Assembly (NCBI GenBank): GCA_963813535.1
Contig: CAWEZH010000003.1
Span: 832,001 to 896,000 of the forward strand
Length of the DNA: 64,000 bases
Source of the DNA: an uncultured Chloroflexia bacterium
Lineage (GTDB): Bacteria; Chloroflexota; Limnocylindria; Limnocylindrales; CSP1-4
Reading direction: 5' to 3'
The position numbers were made by a program, and so were the translations under genes. The notes below the pieces were generated by a model that saw only the letters and a program-made list of their open reading frames with translations, did no database searches and had not been told where the DNA came from. Below, one piece after another: positions 36,553 to 43,790 of the stretch (the stretch's first letter is position 1; each line of letters opens with the position of its first letter).

Positions 36553-37017
36553 ATGCGCGACGATTCGACCGTCGCCCTCAACCGAAAAGCGCGCCACGAG
36601 TTCACCATCGACGAGACGTTCGAGGCCGGGCTCGTGCTGACCGGCACCGAGATCAAGTCGGTCCGTGCGGGCAAGGTGAACATCGCCGGCGCATACGCCC
36701 GCATCGAGAAGGGTGAGGCGTGGCTGATCGGCGCCGACATCGCGCCGTTCGAGCAGGGCAATCGCTACAACCACGAGCCGAAGCGCAACCGGAAGCTGCT
36801 CCTGCATCGGCGCGAGATCGACGAGCTCCTGGGCCGCGCCCAGCAGAAGGGCCAGACGATCGTGCCGTTGCGGCTCTACCTGAGCCGAGGCAAGGCCAAG
36901 ATCGAGCTCGGTCTCGCGCGCGGGAAGCAGCTCCACGACCGGCGTCGCGACATCGCCGACCGTGACGCGAAGCGCGACATCGCCCGGGAGCTCGCCGACG
37001 TCCAGCGCGGTCGCTGA
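36553..37017 (+). CDS. smpB: SsrA-binding protein
   Basis: NRKARHEF, EAGLVLTGTEIKS, RKLLLH, GKQLHDRR. Confidence 0.97.
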   Translation: MRDDSTVALNRKARHEFTIDETFEAGLVLTGTEIKSVRAGKVNIAGAYARIEKGEAWLIGADIAPFEQGNRYNHEPKRNRKLLLHRREIDELLGRAQQKGQTIVPLRLYLSRGKAKIELGLARGKQLHDRRRDIADRDAKRDIARELADVQRGR

Positions 37018-37023
37018 ACCCGC

Positions 37024-38688
37024 TCAGCGGAGCAGGTAGCGACGACTCAGCGGGACCTCGGCGACCGGGGCCACCGCGAGCGGTCGCCCGTCCAGCGTGA
37101 CCGCGCCGTCGGTCGTGTCCACATCGATCGCCGCGGTCGCCCGATTGCGGACGAGCGACGCCCGCGTCAACCCACGCGTGTCTCGAACGGGGATCAGGGC
37201 ACGTCCGTGACGACGCAGCTCGGGTGAGCCGGTCGCCGAGCGCGACACGAAGGTCGCGGAGAGGGACGCGGCAGCCCGCGGCCGACCGCCCCAGTCCGGT
37301 CGATAGCGCGTCGGTTCCGACCGTTCGACCGTCGCGTTTCCCTCGCCGAGCGGCGCCCACGCGACCATACCGCCCTTGAGTACGAGGGCGGGTTTCACGC
37401 CGACGTAGGCGGGCTCCCACAGGGCGATGTCGGCCATCCGGCCCGCCTGGAGGGAGCCGACGTGGTCGGCGATCCCGTGCGTGATGGCCGGCTCGACCGT
37501 CACCTTGGCCAGGTAGCGCAGCACGCGCTCGGTAGCGTCGAACGGATCCGCCGCCGGCACCGTGCCTGACCATCCGCCCATCACGTGCGCAAGCTGGAGC
37601 GTCCGCCGGACCGTCTCCATCATCCGGCCCATGCCCTGCGAGTCGGAGTTGACGATGGCGATCGCGCCGAGCTCGTGGAGCGGGCCCTCGGCAGCCATGG
37701 TCGCCGGGTGGACGCGCTCGCGGACGAGCGCGACGTCCTCGGCGACACCATAGGACGCGCCATGGTTGAGCACGATCATCGGGACCTGTTCGGCGGCGGC
37801 ACTCACGCCGAACGGCACGGTCGGGGTCGTCGACGAGCAGATCACGTTCGGCTCGCGGACCAGGCCGATGACGTCGGGCACGTGGCCGCCCCCGCTTCCC
37901 TCGACATGGTAGGCATGGACGGTCCGTCCCGCGATCGCCGCCACCGTGTCCTCGAGCTCGGCGCTCTCGTGCAACCCGTCCGTGTGGAGCGACACGGACA
38001 CGTCGTGGGCGTCGGCGAATCGTAGGACATGATCGATGAGCTCCGGGTAGGCGCCGTAGTCCTCGTGGATCTTGAAACCGCAGGCGCCGGCGTCGAGCAG
38101 CGCCTCGAGCGGCCCGTCGTCCTCGGCGCGAGCGCATGCCTGGAGTCCGAGGTTGACCGGCCAGTCGCTGACCCCGGCCAAGGTCCGCGCCATCGCCCAC
38201 GGCGGTTCCTCGAAGCCCGCCGTGATCAACGTCGTCACGCCGGCGGACAGGGCGGCAGGCAGCAGTTCCGGCGAGATGAGGTGGACGTGGCTGTCGATGG
38301 CGCCCGGCGTGGCGATGAGCCCGTAGCCCATGATCGGCATGGTGTGCGGCCCGATCCGCAGGTCGATACCCTCGCTCAGCGTGTCGCTACCGGCCCGGCC
38401 CACGCCGACGATGCGCCCGTCCTTGATGCCGATGTCCGCCTTCACGACGCCGATGACCGGGTCGACGACGACGACACCCGCGACCAGCACGTCGAGCTCC
38501 GAATCGGACGCCCTGCCCTGGGTCGCGCGCGGGCGGATGGTCTTGGCGTACCCCCAGATCGGCTCATCGCCGTGGGCCTGGCGGTCCTCCGCCACGCGGA
38601 CCCAGAGGTCGGTGTCGCCGATACGGATCCGGTCGTCGACCGTCGGACCGTAGCGCGCGAGGCGCTCGGCTGGCGAGAGCGAGGTCAA
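37024..38688 (-). CDS. ureC: Divergent urease alpha-subunit-like metallo-amidohydrolase
   Basis: GPTVDDRIR, KADIGIKDG, DSHVH, KIHEDYG, LHTD, YHVEGSGGGH, SDSQGMGR; TTG start overlaps the upstream stop. Confidence 0.88.
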   Translation of the reverse strand: MTSLSPAERLARYGPTVDDRIRIGDTDLWVRVAEDRQAHGDEPIWGYAKTIRPRATQGRASDSELDVLVAGVVVVDPVIGVVKADIGIKDGRIVGVGRAGSDTLSEGIDLRIGPHTMPIMGYGLIATPGAIDSHVHLISPELLPAALSAGVTTLITAGFEEPPWAMARTLAGVSDWPVNLGLQACARAEDDGPLEALLDAGACGFKIHEDYGAYPELIDHVLRFADAHDVSVSLHTDGLHESAELEDTVAAIAGRTVHAYHVEGSGGGHVPDVIGLVREPNVICSSTTPTVPFGVSAAAEQVPMIVLNHGASYGVAEDVALVRERVHPATMAAEGPLHELGAIAIVNSDSQGMGRMMETVRRTLQLAHVMGGWSGTVPAADPFDATERVLRYLAKVTVEPAITHGIADHVGSLQAGRMADIALWEPAYVGVKPALVLKGGMVAWAPLGEGNATVERSEPTRYRPDWGGRPRAAASLSATFVSRSATGSPELRRHGRALIPVRDTRGLTRASLVRNRATAAIDVDTTDGAVTLDGRPLAVAPVAEVPLSRRYLLR

Positions 38689-39251
38689 CGGGTGCGCACC
38701 AGGCGAACGGTCCGCGTTTCGCCGGGTGCCCAACGCTCGGTCGAGCCAGCGTCGATGTCGAGGTGGCAGCCCATCGCCCTGACGCGATCGAACTCCAACC
38801 GTGGATTCACGCGTTCGAATGGGTAGTGGCTCGAGACGCGCACGACCCGTCGCGACGCATTCCGGACCTCGAGGTCGAGCCGCTCGCGGCCATCGGCGTC
38901 GTCGGTCCCGGGAGCTTGGCGGATGGCACCCGGGGCATCATCGTCGGATGGACCGAGCGGTGCGAGCAGATGCACGAGCCTGCTGCCGTCATCCATCAGC
39001 ACTTCGAGGCGGACCTCCGAAATCAGGGCGGCCACGCCCGGAAGGACTTGCTCGTGGCCCACGGCGCCATACCCGGCCGCCTCGACCTCCTCGTAGGTCG
39101 CGCCCGCACGCGCCGCCTCGAGCATCGCGTCGCAGATCAGCGCGATCGCCTCCGGGGCGTTGAGGAGGAGGCCACGATCCCTGTGGCGCCGCGCGAGTTC
39201 CGCCGCCGTGAAGATGAGGAGCCGCTCCTCCTCCCACGCCGTCAGTCTCAC
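38685..39251 (-). CDS. ureAB: Fused urease gamma/beta subunit-like protein
   Basis: RLTAWEEERLLI..LNAPEAIA..DGSRLV (gamma), then PGAI..VSSHYPF..LEFDR..LDIDAG..WAPGE (beta). Confidence 0.85.
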   Translation of the reverse strand: MRLTAWEEERLLIFTAAELARRHRDRGLLLNAPEAIALICDAMLEAARAGATYEEVEAAGYGAVGHEQVLPGVAALISEVRLEVLMDDGSRLVHLLAPLGPSDDDAPGAIRQAPGTDDADGRERLDLEVRNASRRVVRVSSHYPFERVNPRLEFDRVRAMGCHLDIDAGSTERWAPGETRTVRLVRTR

Positions 39252-40039
39252 GAGCCGGGTGTCGCCTCCGGTGTCGCGGGATCGCTCGCGATCGCCGGCC
39301 CGTCGTCCGGCCGGCGTCGAGCCAGCCAGAGGATCAGCAGGTTGAGCAGCGCGACGTAGCCCACGATGGCCAGCAGGGCGCCCGCCCCGAGCCACAGGAT
39401 GCCATCGACGCGCCCGTGCACGTCGGCGATGCGAAGCCGAAGATCGTCGACCGCGGCGCGCAGCGAGCGCGCCGTCTCGACCGACCGCGTCGCCGCGTCG
39501 CGCAGCGTCGTCGCCGCCGCGGTGACGTCTCCGGCCGTCGCGCGGGCAGCGCCACGCAGGGCCGTCAGTGCCCCATCGATGGCGACGAGCCGTTCGTTCG
39601 CCGTCGCGAGAGCGTCTGGTACCCCGGTGGGGGCCTCCATGCCGGGTATCAACCGCGCAGCGCCCTGCACGCTTTCCAGGGCCGACGATGCCCGCTCGCG
39701 TGCCGCGACGAACCGATCGCGAGCGATCGCGTAGGCGTCGACGACCGTCGAGATGCGGGCCGCCACCGCTGCCGGGATGGGCTGTGCCGCCGCCAGGACG
39801 CCCGACTCCGCGACCAGCTCGTCGAGCCGGCCGACGCCTTCGGACAGACGCGCGGATGCGTCGTCGACCGTGGCGAGTCCGTTGCCGATCGAGGTGTCGG
39901 CGGCCACGAACACGTCACCGACCGCGACCGCCACGAACGATCGTCCGAGGAGGATGGCGATGGCGAGCGCCAGGGACACGAGCAGCCCGGCGATCCCGAG
40001 CACCTGCAGCGATCTCGAGGTCCATCGTCCGAGCGCCAT
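39248..40039 (-). CDS. Hypothetical 2-TM protein with long Ala-rich helical/coiled-coil loop
   Basis: N- and C-terminal hydrophobic helices; GGAGGG RBS before ATG 40039; stop overlaps the ureAB GTG. Confidence 0.7.
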   Translation of the reverse strand: MALGRWTSRSLQVLGIAGLLVSLALAIAILLGRSFVAVAVGDVFVAADTSIGNGLATVDDASARLSEGVGRLDELVAESGVLAAAQPIPAAVAARISTVVDAYAIARDRFVAARERASSALESVQGAARLIPGMEAPTGVPDALATANERLVAIDGALTALRGAARATAGDVTAAATTLRDAATRSVETARSLRAAVDDLRLRIADVHGRVDGILWLGAGALLAIVGYVALLNLLILWLARRRPDDGPAIASDPATPEATPGS

Positions 40040-40952: not shown

Positions 40953-41328
40953 GGGGATGCGTGGTTTCGACAGGGCTTGGTTGTCGGAGAGTGCGAGCCG
41001 AGGATGCTGCTCAGGCCTCGTTAATCAGGCAGCAAAACGAAGTACCTGGCAACCGCCAGTCGACTCTCGCCCTCGCCGCTTAGGCGGTAAGGTGAGCGTG
41101 GAAGCGACCTCCGTCCCGCGGGTCGTGGAAGCGTCATGCAGCGGGGCTGCGATCCGGATGAGCGTCGCGTAGTCCGGAGTCAAGCCCGATCTAGGGGCAC
41201 GTGACTGGACCGTCCGGCAGGGTGCCGATGTCCGTCCGGGCGGTCGACGACAAACCATCGGACACGCTCGTAGTGGTCTCCGACGAAGGGTCTTGGACGG
41301 GGAGTTCGACTCTCCCCCATCTCCACCA
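40953..41328 (+). ncRNA. ssrA: tmRNA, tag peptide (A)GNRQSTLALAA at 41048-41083
   Basis: 5' GGGGATG..GGTTTCGAC; 3' TTCGACT loop and CATCTCCACCA; G3-U wobble; LAA-ending tag; smpB nearby. Confidence 0.96.
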
Positions 41329-41351: not shown

Positions 41352-42551
41352 TCACGCCATCCCGGCACCGTGGACGTCGGTGGCCGGATCCTTCGTCCGC
41401 CCGAACGCCACCAGCGCCGCAGCGCTGATCAGACAGAGCAGCGCGTTGCCGGCCATCGCGATCGGGAGTCCGACGGTGACCGACAGGAAGCCGATAGCCG
41501 GCGGATAGATGATCGATCCGACGACGGCGAACCCGACGAGGGTGCCGCCGACCGCGGCGGACCGTGCCGGGTAGCGCTCGCCGCCCAGGGCCACGATCAT
41601 CGGGAACACCGGACCCGACGCGACACCGGCGAGGCCGAACAGCGCGATCGAGAGCGGCAGCGTTGGAGCGGCGACGGCCAGCCCGGTGGCCAGTCCCATC
41701 AGCACGGCACACACGATCGTGAACCGCAGGTGGTCGAACCGGTCCGCGATCACGGAGGACAGCAGGCGACCGACCGTCGCTCCGGCCCAGATCAGAGAAA
41801 GCGCCAGCGTCGCGGTCGCGAGCGGTGCGGGCTCCAGGAACCGGACGACCCAGTTCGAGACGCCGATCTCGGCCGCGACATAGCTCGCGATCGCCAGGCC
41901 GAGGAGGACCAGGGGGACGGACAGCAACCGTCGGCCGATCGTCAGGCCGGTGGGGGACGGGACACCGGCCGGGTCACGTCGCCCGCTCGGCATCGGCACG
42001 ATCGCGTAGGCGATCGCCAGCCCCGCGAGTGGCGCGGCGGACAGCAGCATGATCGCTTCCCAGGTGACACCGGCCTCGACGGCGCGACCGACGACCAGCG
42101 GCGCGAGCAACGCGCCGACACTGAATGACACGTGCAGGAGATTCATCGCCCTGCCACGACCCTCGCGATAGACGTCCAGGACAAGACCGTTCGATCCCCC
42201 GTCCAGACAGCCGGCCCCGAGTCCAGCGGGGAGCATCGCCGCGACGAACAGCGGCCAGCTCGGGGCGAGCCCGAGGCCGGCGATGCCCACGCCGTGCAGG
42301 ACAGCCGCGCCCGCCAGGACCGTTCGTCGGCCGACCCGCTCCATGATCTGGCCACCCAGGATCGAGCCGGCGGCATAGGCGACCGCATACGCGAAGTACA
42401 CGACGCCGATGCCCGCGTCGTTCTGGTCGAACGCGTCCTTGATCGACCGGATCAGCGACGGGACCAGGAGACCCGTCCACCCGATGACCAGGAGGGTCAG
42501 GCTGCCGACGATGCCGGCCGCGAGTCGACGGTCGGGGGTCGTCAGGGTCAC
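41352..42551 (-). CDS. MFS transporter (TsgA/FucP-like)
   Basis: 12 hydrophobic segments, ERVGRR motif A, NLLHVSFSVGA. Confidence 0.88.
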   Translation of the reverse strand: MTLTTPDRRLAAGIVGSLTLLVIGWTGLLVPSLIRSIKDAFDQNDAGIGVVYFAYAVAYAAGSILGGQIMERVGRRTVLAGAAVLHGVGIAGLGLAPSWPLFVAAMLPAGLGAGCLDGGSNGLVLDVYREGRGRAMNLLHVSFSVGALLAPLVVGRAVEAGVTWEAIMLLSAAPLAGLAIAYAIVPMPSGRRDPAGVPSPTGLTIGRRLLSVPLVLLGLAIASYVAAEIGVSNWVVRFLEPAPLATATLALSLIWAGATVGRLLSSVIADRFDHLRFTIVCAVLMGLATGLAVAAPTLPLSIALFGLAGVASGPVFPMIVALGGERYPARSAAVGGTLVGFAVVGSIIYPPAIGFLSVTVGLPIAMAGNALLCLISAAALVAFGRTKDPATDVHGAGMA

Positions 42552-42647: not shown

Positions 42648-43790
42648 CTACCCGCGACCCGCGAGCACGCGCTCCATCACCGCCCGCGTCGGCGGCAGGC
42701 GGCTCATGATCGGTAGCCCGAGATCGCGAGCCGGGCCGAGCCAGCCACGACTCGACTGGAAGAACGGGCTCAGGGCGCGGCTGAGCAACGCATAGCGGAC
42801 GTTCTGGAACCACCGGCTCCGATCCCAGTGCGCGAGGGCGCTCGCCAGGTCGGGTGAGGCGCGCAACGACGCTGCGAGCGCGGCCGCGTCGAGCAGTGCG
42901 AGGTTGGCACCCTGGCCGAGGTGGGGCGGCGACGCGTGCGCCGCATCGCCGATGAGCACGATCCGGGACGTGTGGGTCCGTCGAACGGTGGCGTGGCCAT
43001 ACCGCGCCAGCAGGAGTCGGTCGAAGCTGCCGATGGCCTCGAACACCTCACCGGCTTCGGGCAGCACCGCACCGACGCGCCCGACCAGGTGCGGGAAGCC
43101 GGCCGTCCGCCACGACTCCAGGTCGCTCGCCCGGAGACCCCAGAACACGGCGGCCTCCCGAGGGCCGACGGGCAGGTGACCCGCAAGGAGACCCACGCCA
43201 CGCGCCTGCTGGTGGAGGACGTGCGCGCACGCGTCGGACGTCGGACCGATCCCCCACAGCGCCGCGAACGGTGACAGGACGAGTCGGGCGTCGGGGTCGA
43301 CGGACCGCCGTACGGCTGAGCGCATGCCGTCGGCTCCCACAAGCAGATCGCATGTGTCGAGCTCGGCGCCGCCGAACGCGACCGGTACGACGGCGTCGGG
43401 ACGCTCGCGGCCGCTGGCGATCCGGATGCCGGTCCCGATGCGAACGCCGGCGTCCAGGGCGGTCGCCTGCAGAGCCGTGAACAGTCGGCCGCGCGAGACC
43501 CCGAGGGCATGGGCCGCCGGGTCGCCTCGATCGTAGCGGAACTCCGACAGGATCCGCCCCGGAGCGGACTCGGCGCGGAAGCGCCGGATCGGCCAGGCCG
43601 ACGCCCTGACCTCGTCCAGGAGCCCGATCCCGGCCAGCACATCCTGGCCGGATGGCTGCAGCAGGAAGCCCGCACCGACCGGGCCGAGCGCCGCAGCCTG
43701 CTCGTAGACCGTCACCTCGTGGCCATCGCGTGCAAGGGCGATCGACAGGGCAGCGCCACCGATCCCGAACCCAGCGATCGCCACGCGCAT
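42648..43790 (-). CDS. FAD-dependent monooxygenase (UbiH/salicylate hydroxylase family)
   Basis: GFGIGG, GADGMRSAVR, LIGDAAH..P.LGQGANLA. Confidence 0.9.
   Translation of the reverse strand: MRVAIAGFGIGGAALSIALARDGHEVTVYEQAAALGPVGAGFLLQPSGQDVLAGIGLLDEVRASAWPIRRFRAESAPGRILSEFRYDRGDPAAHALGVSRGRLFTALQATALDAGVRIGTGIRIASGRERPDAVVPVAFGGAELDTCDLLVGADGMRSAVRRSVDPDARLVLSPFAALWGIGPTSDACAHVLHQQARGVGLLAGHLPVGPREAAVFWGLRASDLESWRTAGFPHLVGRVGAVLPEAGEVFEAIGSFDRLLLARYGHATVRRTHTSRIVLIGDAAHASPPHLGQGANLALLDAAALAASLRASPDLASALAHWDRSRWFQNVRYALLSRALSPFFQSSRGWLGPARDLGLPIMSRLPPTRAVMERVLAGRG

Follow-up and report, generated by a model that had tools for sequence, protein, structure and literature searches.

By sequence, two genes at positions 37024-39251 of a 64,000-nt window from a soil Chloroflexota belong to a distinct, non-canonical ure(AB)C branch of the urease family, with a fused gamma-beta subunit, an alpha subunit and no helper genes. 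The window is the whole stretch of DNA analyzed (NCBI GenBank assembly GCA_963813535.1, contig CAWEZH010000003.1, positions 832,001 to 896,000 of the forward strand), and the genome of its host, an uncultured Chloroflexia bacterium, comprises 3.28 Mb in three contigs and is 92.9% complete. The urease relative is under selection and is not decaying. Sequences of this enzyme type were already known, given that ure(AB)C-only clusters were noted in Streptomyces in 2008 (PMC2492869). We tentatively suggest that its preferred substrate is an N-substituted urea rather than free urea.

The gene for the alpha (UreC-like) subunit (37024-38688, minus strand, 554 amino acids (aa)) begins with a TTG codon that shares 4 bases with the TGA stop of the fused gamma-beta (Ure(AB)) gene (38685-39251, minus strand, 188 aa, GTG start), reading TTGA. 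The gamma-beta GTG likewise overlaps the TGA of an upstream open reading frame (ORF), P0123 (GTGA). The frames in the ORF list were longer at their 5´ ends (37024..38733 for alpha and 38685..39395 for gamma-beta). The closest alpha homologs are 549-560 aa long and their alignments begin at query residue 16; because of these homolog lengths and the overlapping TTG and GTG codons in the DNA, the true starts were placed inside the listed frames. With the starts so re-derived, the extent given in an earlier note made from the sequence alone (hereafter the original prediction) was exact, and its description of a fused gamma-beta gene coupled by an overlap to an alpha gene stood. Pfam assigned Urease_alpha and Amidohydro_1 to alpha (PF00449 and PF01979 in the Pfam set) and both Urease_gamma and Urease_beta (PF00547 and PF00699 in the Pfam set) to the single gamma-beta protein, so that by Pfam and Foldseek the urease subunit set (alpha N-terminal domain plus amidohydrolase barrel, gamma and beta) is complete. 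The gamma and beta subunits are likewise fused in H. pylori urease (PMC6737895).

Residues were compared using a HMMER alignment to H. pylori UreB (1e9y_B, E-value 1.6e-133) and MAFFT alignments with family-wide representatives. Both bore out the claim that every ligand of the dinuclear metal site is kept (HxH, the K of KIHED, the H of HTD, the H of YHVEG and the D of SDSQ): all six ligands are present in alpha as H134, H136, K206, H235, H261 and D349. The catalytic residues H208, D210, H309 and R325, corresponding to K. aerogenes His219, Asp221, His320 and Arg336, are present as well. Across 10 non-canonical representatives and 40 sequences, H134, H136, K206, H208, E209, D210, H235, H261, H269, H309, R325 and D349 are invariant. 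The fold, the six ligands and the catalytic residues are thus shared with the canonical nickel UreABC enzymes of K. aerogenes, S. pasteurii and H. pylori (PDB 2kau, 4ubp and 1e9y), but the window enzyme differs from them around the substrate pocket. Following TTLI, the active-site loop (TAGFEEPPW) lacks 11 residues; by our own measure, the loop following the strand TTLITA has 19 residues compared to 30 in canonical enzymes. Neither the full-length canonical loop ([15 protein letters not shown]) nor the flap MVCHH is found in the window alpha. In place of a canonical loop of ~16 residues there is a 5-residue turn, G158-P162 (GFEEP), carrying Phe-Glu-Glu, and the numbering after the loop is offset by exactly 11 relative to K. 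aerogenes K217, H219, D221, C319 and H320 (numbers from PDB titles). In the flap, MxMVCHH has become MIVLNHG (L-N308-H309-G310), with the Cys replaced by Asn, the catalytic His kept and the following His replaced by Gly, and FGGGK has become WGYAK. All of these substitutions had been read correctly from the sequence. The change from SDSQAMGR to SDSQGMGR is also present, but it is not diagnostic, because canonical-type cyanobacterial ureases (P0299, P0307 and P0314) share SDSQGMGR.

The deleted segment bears on how urea would be held. In S. pasteurii urease, the Ni(2)-bound urea nitrogen is held by two backbone carbonyls, those of alpha-Ala170 and alpha-Ala366, while the mobile flap carries alpha-Cys322 and alpha-His323 (PMC7433671). 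In the MAFFT alignment the alpha-Ala170 position falls within the deleted segment. An AlphaFold2 model built from 40 sequences (predicted local distance difference test score 86, predicted template modeling (TM) score 0.92) places a strand at 151-157, the turn GFEEP at 158-162 and a helix at 163-173 where canonical enzymes have the long loop. Foldseek comparison with solved ureases gave TM-scores of 0.93-0.95 at 36-39% identity. Among the NCBIfam models, alpha passed only the broad subfamily model NF009686 (605.7 bits, cut-off 354) and fell below every equivalog cut-off (TIGR01792, 528.1 compared to 680; NF009685, 532 compared to 907), and gamma-beta failed the gamma/beta fusion model NF009671 (195.6 compared to 243). 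These observations bear on a rival explanation that we consider doubtful in itself but nearly as likely as the preferred one, namely that the protein is a true, urea-specific urease that matures without accessory proteins and recovers nitrogen from urea released by the host's own ureohydrolases, the pocket changes tuning metal loading or kinetics and leaving the choice of substrate as it was. The metal ligands and the urea-polarizing and catalytic residues are all kept, as this explanation would have it, and the clade is named urease in databases and papers (PMC3293853), whereas the deletion takes away the loop with one of the two carbonyl contacts of the Ni(2)-bound urea nitrogen, and the protein failed the urease-alpha equivalog TIGR01792.

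The remodeled pocket is strongly conserved. Of the 120 nearest representatives of 90% clusters (80-95% identity), all have HVH, GGGH, SDSQGMGR and TAGFEEPP, the last followed by W in 110. LNHG is found in 117, KIHED in 116 (KVHED in the other 4) and WGYAK in 104, with WGYGK in 15 more. Nei-Gojobori ratios of nonsynonymous to synonymous substitution (dN/dS) against six same-genus relatives were 0.10-0.21 for alpha and 0.14-0.27 for gamma-beta. Decay, with substitutions absent from homologs, had been named as an alternative in the original prediction; the conservation counts and the dN/dS ratios instead describe a conserved, selected paralogue-type enzyme. An inactive relic or non-catalytic protein is accordingly very improbable. 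The absence of helper genes would fit such a protein, and urease homologs lacking the metal ligands do exist (P0154, P0171, P0186, P0188, P0196, P0201 and P0227), but in the window enzyme every ligand and catalytic residue is of the invariant set, dN/dS is low, the frames are intact and the starts are coupled.

A profile-free exhaustive search of 1.84 billion representatives returned few full-length clusters. Those aligned are of three kinds: canonical; with ligands kept but a short loop and the CHH flap gone; and ligand-less groups. The ligand-less full-length urease-alpha homologs, comprising the seven listed above together with P0269, P0272 and P0219, have lost most or all of the HxH, Lys, His and Asp ligands, are placed inside the canonical side of the tree and are candidate pseudo-enzymes. 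A scan of one genome per species yielded 80 non-canonical loci, in Chloroflexota metagenome-assembled genomes (MAGs) labeled Limnocylindrales or Chloroflexia (65-83% identity), in Actinomycetota MAGs (~60%), and in Streptomyces, Kitasatospora, Nonomuraea and others (~45%). Two quick, unrooted maximum-likelihood trees were made (LG+G4), with the Shimodaira-Hasegawa-like approximate likelihood ratio test (SH-aLRT) as the only support measure and no bootstrap; seven ligand-less long-branch rows were dropped from the second. The split between canonical and non-canonical rows received an SH-aLRT of 100 in both trees (20 compared to 45 rows and 26 compared to 46 rows). A UreC phylogeny had been proposed as a check in the original prediction, and in it the window alpha lies outside the canonical urease clade, grouped with the ure(AB)C proteins of Streptomyces, Kitasatospora and other Actinomycetota. 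Within the non-canonical clade, the window alpha belongs to a 16-row sub-clade with a 19-residue loop (SH-aLRT 100), in which all rows but one have WGYAK or WGYGK/WGYGR and the flap reads LNHG in Chloroflexota and AVHG or LVHE in Actinomycetota. The Streptomyces-type proteins, with a 26-residue loop, are the sister group. Three candidates for accessory-bearing basal members, L117, L150 and L137 (flap xCHN/xCHL, ureG/ureD adjacent), grouped with the canonical ureases in the second tree. The non-canonical clade yielded no member with accessory genes, in a count that leaves aside the gene contexts of P0128, P0130, P0135 and P0281.

The second distinguishing feature is the absence of maturation genes. 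As predicted, ureD, ureF, ureG and ureE were not found in the window, and the genome-wide search that had been suggested gave no match to UreD, UreF, UreG or UreE_C in the 92.9%-complete genome, which contains a single urease-alpha gene and, outside the window, a single NicO-family transporter gene. In the genus, a urease-relative gene is present in 16 of 24 genomes, UreD in 2 of 61 and UreG over cut-off in 1 of 61. Two same-genus loci carry canonical-type urease operons with ureG and ureD (G011:C3:119189-123581 and G072:C37:20066-24459); the canonical-type alpha of the first genome (42% identity) is present in addition to another alpha gene, with 3 TGA stops in its match and 1 TGA in the ureG match. 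An even sample of 251 genomes of the class gave 33 matches at E <= 1e-40, of which 31 have at least 59% identity and all come from one family (31 of its 72 genomes, plus the window's own). UreG was over cut-off in three genomes of this sample, a tally that includes genome G167; two of the three are those with 45-47% matches, with ureG on the same contig. None of the 31 carrier genomes at 59% identity or more has UreG over cut-off, and a gap in the window's assembly is therefore an unlikely cause of the missing ureG. Likewise, UreG did not exceed its cut-off in any of five Actinomycetota MAG genomes from the sub-clade with the 19-residue loop, but it was encoded elsewhere in the genome in 5 of 5 Streptomyces with the 26-residue-loop enzyme. 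Finally, tblastn with ureF, ureG and ureD from the canonical operon of G072 gave no match at any of the 80 non-canonical loci, with flanks of up to 10 kb, nor in the window. The same queries matched 25, 47 and 45, respectively, of 80 mostly canonical metagenome loci, which validates the test. Collectively, the searches of the host genome, genus, class and Actinomycetota MAGs show that the enzyme occurs in genomes without known maturation genes.

It seems improbable that the protein is a nickel enzyme served by unrecognized helpers, whether these are P0123 and P0124, further metallochaperones or ureDFG genes located in the ~7% of the genome that is missing. P0123 (39248..40144, minus strand, start uncertain) is rich in Ala and has a hydrophobic segment at each terminus. 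Its stop codon shares bases with the start of gamma-beta, so that it is translationally coupled to ure(AB), and tblastn detected homologs at the same position in four relatives (L002, L004, L005 and L019). These are fast-evolving, at 35-92% identity, with the position kept even in the more distant relatives (35-37%). Coupling and position, together with the NicO-family transporter and the incompleteness of the genome, would favor undetected helpers. Against this stand the lack of UreG in the class-sample carriers and the finding that, among the analyzed loci, P0123 was matched in only those four relatives besides its own locus. P0123 also looks membrane-anchored, and no family could be assigned to it, the Atlas clusters giving only "hypothetical protein". 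In addition, the end of the transfer-messenger RNA (tmRNA) gene lies ~700-1100 bases upstream of the alpha start in L024, L025, L029 and L046, and therefore little beyond gamma-beta has room there. P0124 (40168..40863, minus strand), the first gene of the same-strand block, is lipoprotein-like and without a family match, with an internal Met followed by a signal-peptide-like stretch ending in ...LIAAC; whether it is a member of the operon is not certain.

Accessory-free ureases have precedents, on which the true-urease explanation can also draw. The structural genes of B. subtilis urease are separate and its sequence is canonical. As in the window's genome, urease structural genes are present in B. 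subtilis without known accessory genes, and H. mustelae UreA2B2 is a two-gene iron urease that is active without accessory proteins (both as described in the extract of PMC6737895 used here). The window alpha matches H. mustelae UreA2B2 (PDB 3qga) with an E-value of 5.3e-129 (3qga_C), a TM-score of 0.93 and 36% identity, an overall match only. By this analogy, the window enzyme is probably active and its metal center probably assembled unaided.

Among the closest known systems are the second clusters, ure(AB)C, of S. coelicolor and S. avermitilis (SCO5525-5526 and SAV2715), which were reported in 2008 to have no adjacent accessory genes (PMC2492869) and were listed among "urea-utilizing genes" (PMC3293853). 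The two-gene layout and the clade are shared with the window, membership being judged from other Streptomyces genomes than those of the SCO and SAV proteins. These two papers were all that a literature search found on the Streptomyces cluster; it found nothing relevant on urease in Limnocylindria and no biochemical or functional study of the non-canonical clade, with subscription journals outside its reach. The "SCO5526" of PMC4991794 is nrdAB and is unrelated to the urease cluster. The Streptomyces type is only ~45% identical to the window enzyme, and its loop, at 26 residues compared to 30 in canonical enzymes, is only 4 residues shorter. It also differs in its genomic setting: ureG is encoded elsewhere (5 of 5 genomes), and it is adjoined by genes for an agmatine-deiminase-like protein, an NCS1 permease and a TetR regulator, none of which is found at the window locus.

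These neighbors provide the substrate hints. The ORFs around the 80 loci were clustered, cluster representatives were scanned and genes within 3 kb were counted; the loci are not independent, many being from related Streptomyces, and most of the genomes are MAGs. At 46 loci of the 26-residue-loop group, a PF04371 (agmatine-deiminase-like) gene was counted at 33, an NCS1 permease at 25, TetR at 19 and a major facilitator superfamily (MFS) cluster at 0. The corresponding counts were 6, 3, 0 and 0 at the 14 loci of the Actinomycetota with the 19-residue loop and 0, 1, 0 and 5 at the 14 Chloroflexota-type loci. The PF04371 gene scored 334.8 bits against TIGR03380, below the cut-off of 381.8. Depending on lineage, it lies downstream, upstream or divergent relative to the urease homolog, and its occurrence in several gene orders is more readily explained by a functional link than by inheritance of the arrangement. 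The product of an agmatine-deiminase-type enzyme is an N-substituted urea. In the agmatine route, the ureido group made by agmatine deiminase is hydrolyzed by the second enzyme, AguB (PMC9397018). AguB (TIGR03381) was not over cut-off in any of 12 genomes in which the deiminase-like gene adjoins the urease homolog; in six of them an AguB-like gene reaches ~240-265 bits, and in the other six no match exceeds 105 bits. The deiminase-like neighbors in Actinomycetota thus point, as indirect support, to an N-carbamoyl-amine substrate. AguB, a member of the nitrilase superfamily, would share with the relatives only the reaction proposed for them, its fold and mechanism being unrelated, so that the analogy is functional and drawn from the neighborhood. 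The presence of the ure(AB)C enzyme beside ureG elsewhere in the genome in 5 of 5 Streptomyces suggests a non-redundant role.

A true urease would sit less easily with this context, given that Streptomyces has the enzyme in addition to a canonical system and encodes it in an operon-like cluster together with deiminase-like, NCS1 permease and TetR genes. Several features of the window's own genome fit a true urease. The enzyme is the sole urease-family gene, and there are seven arginase-family genes, all outside the window (genome G000, C2:894667-895500, C1:40678-41493, C3:460375-461232, C3:461303-462148, C3:706482-707342, C3:178707-179516 and C2:648079-648924), whereas a urea ATP-binding cassette transporter was not found in the genome (urtA 18.6 bits, cut-off 492.75). 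Arginase-family genes are present in 75 of the 81 family genomes and do not track the enzyme; with carriers and non-carriers alike having them, arginase-family copy number was uninformative as a correlate and was set aside. The seven arginase/ureohydrolase-family genes, two of them in tandem, are the highest count among the 81 family genomes.

On balance we lean toward the preferred substrate being an N-substituted urea (N-carbamoyl-amine) rather than free urea, with somewhat more doubt than conviction, and urea may still be turned over. We do so because a urea-binding element is deleted, because Streptomyces keeps the enzyme beside a canonical system and because relatives with the same pocket are repeatedly found next to a deiminase-like gene where the genome has no clear AguB. 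Several observations weigh against this choice. The AguB-like genes of ~240-265 bits, in Streptomyces and two others, mean that the agmatine route does not clearly lack a second-step enzyme in those genomes. A PF04371 gene is absent from the window's genome, as it is from the vicinity of all 14 Chloroflexota-type loci, so that the deiminase link comes entirely from relatives at 45-65% identity. Were such a deiminase to act on free guanidine, its product would be urea itself, which makes even the neighborhood compatible with urea, and the seven arginase-family genes could release urea in the host. Urea carboxylase was not found in the genome, in which only generic biotin-carboxylase and biotinyl parts matched. 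The HMMER gap lies slightly downstream of the MAFFT gap, which leaves the Ala170 equivalence open, and the urea-binding and urea-polarizing residues outside the deleted loop are all kept. The genome is only 92.9% complete, a point that touches the missing helper genes, and the activity, metal and substrate proposed here are inferred from sequence, model and neighborhood. Plain urea keeps a real share of the likelihood since the window's own genome has neither the deiminase nor another urea route. The interpretation in the original prediction, a urease paralogue with a different or larger substrate that possibly matures unaided, is partly supported. The remaining probability lies with reactions outside the explanations given here.

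In the proposed mechanism, which follows urease chemistry, a metal pair bridged by the carbamylated Lys would activate water and cleave a C-N bond of the ureido group, with the conserved His208, Asp210, flap His309 and Arg325 assisting catalysis. The metal center would be built without UreD, UreE, UreF and UreG, through spontaneous loading or the use of a metal other than nickel, and the substrate would be an N-carbamoyl-amine such as N-carbamoylputrescine, imported or made by other enzymes. Extended to the whole non-canonical ure(AB)C clade, this would make its members self-maturing "ureidases", possibly non-nickel, that cleave N-carbamoyl-amines, a proposal we regard as speculative and, on present evidence, doubtful. 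As part of it, in Actinomycetota the deiminase-like partner and a dedicated permease would form with the enzyme an undescribed two-step route from guanidino compound to amine, the urease homolog replacing the nitrilase-type AguB, while in soil Chloroflexota the enzyme alone would act on imported ureido compounds.

The tmRNA gene and smpB are usually neighbors. In the window and ten related loci (L019, L021, L022, L024, L025, L028, L029, L032, L035 and L046), the ure block, ~3.9 kb on the minus strand, sits between them, bounded on one side by the tmRNA gene (ssrA, 40953..41328, plus strand, 116 bits, E-value 2.5e-44) and on the other by smpB (36553..37017, plus strand, PF01668, E-value 4e-59), which is convergent with the alpha gene. 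The block may be an old insertion at the ssrA/smpB site. In five relatives, an MFS gene lies before ure(AB)C in the same orientation and is itself immediately preceded by a cyclic di-AMP (c-di-AMP) riboswitch (RF00379, 60-70 bits; L019:1585-1717, L020:133-262, L021:7908-8038, L022:7929-8059 and L035:7912-8040); to our knowledge, c-di-AMP has not been linked to an operon of the urease type. At gathering thresholds, no guanidine or other riboswitch was found at the window operon, the c-di-AMP riboswitch included. Beyond the tmRNA gene of the window, on the strand of the ure block, are genes for an MFS transporter (41352-42551, minus strand) and a flavin adenine dinucleotide-dependent monooxygenase (42648-43790, minus strand). 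The latter has a weak likeness to the urate hydroxylase HpxO (109 bits, cut-off 500), with no link to ure shown. Just downstream of alpha, on the opposite strand, seven Chloroflexota relatives have a proline-racemase-family gene (for example, L046:12557-13633), which is absent from this position in the window and, among NCBIfam models, is matched best by trans-3-hydroxy-L-proline dehydratase (363 bits, cut-off 550). In a soil metatranscriptome run, 5% of the sampled words were present, and two contigs of 151 bases each (depth 3) aligned to 37384-37533, with 4 differences, and to 37556-37705, with 1; this is too little for a claim of transcription, and the reads may stem from DNA carry-over.

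Urease is the classic example of a nickel enzyme, and its dependence on UreDEFG serves as a model of how metallocenters are assembled. A large, conserved branch with the full catalytic site in genomes that have none of these helpers would either offer a natural system for helper-free assembly or for the use of another metal, or show that evolution has turned the urease fold to other ureido substrates. Because the genes of the clade carry the annotation "urease subunit alpha" in genomes and metagenomes, ureolytic potential may be over- or undercounted in soil Chloroflexota and Actinomycetota. The link to agmatine-deiminase-like genes provides a concrete substrate hypothesis that is testable in culturable Streptomyces.

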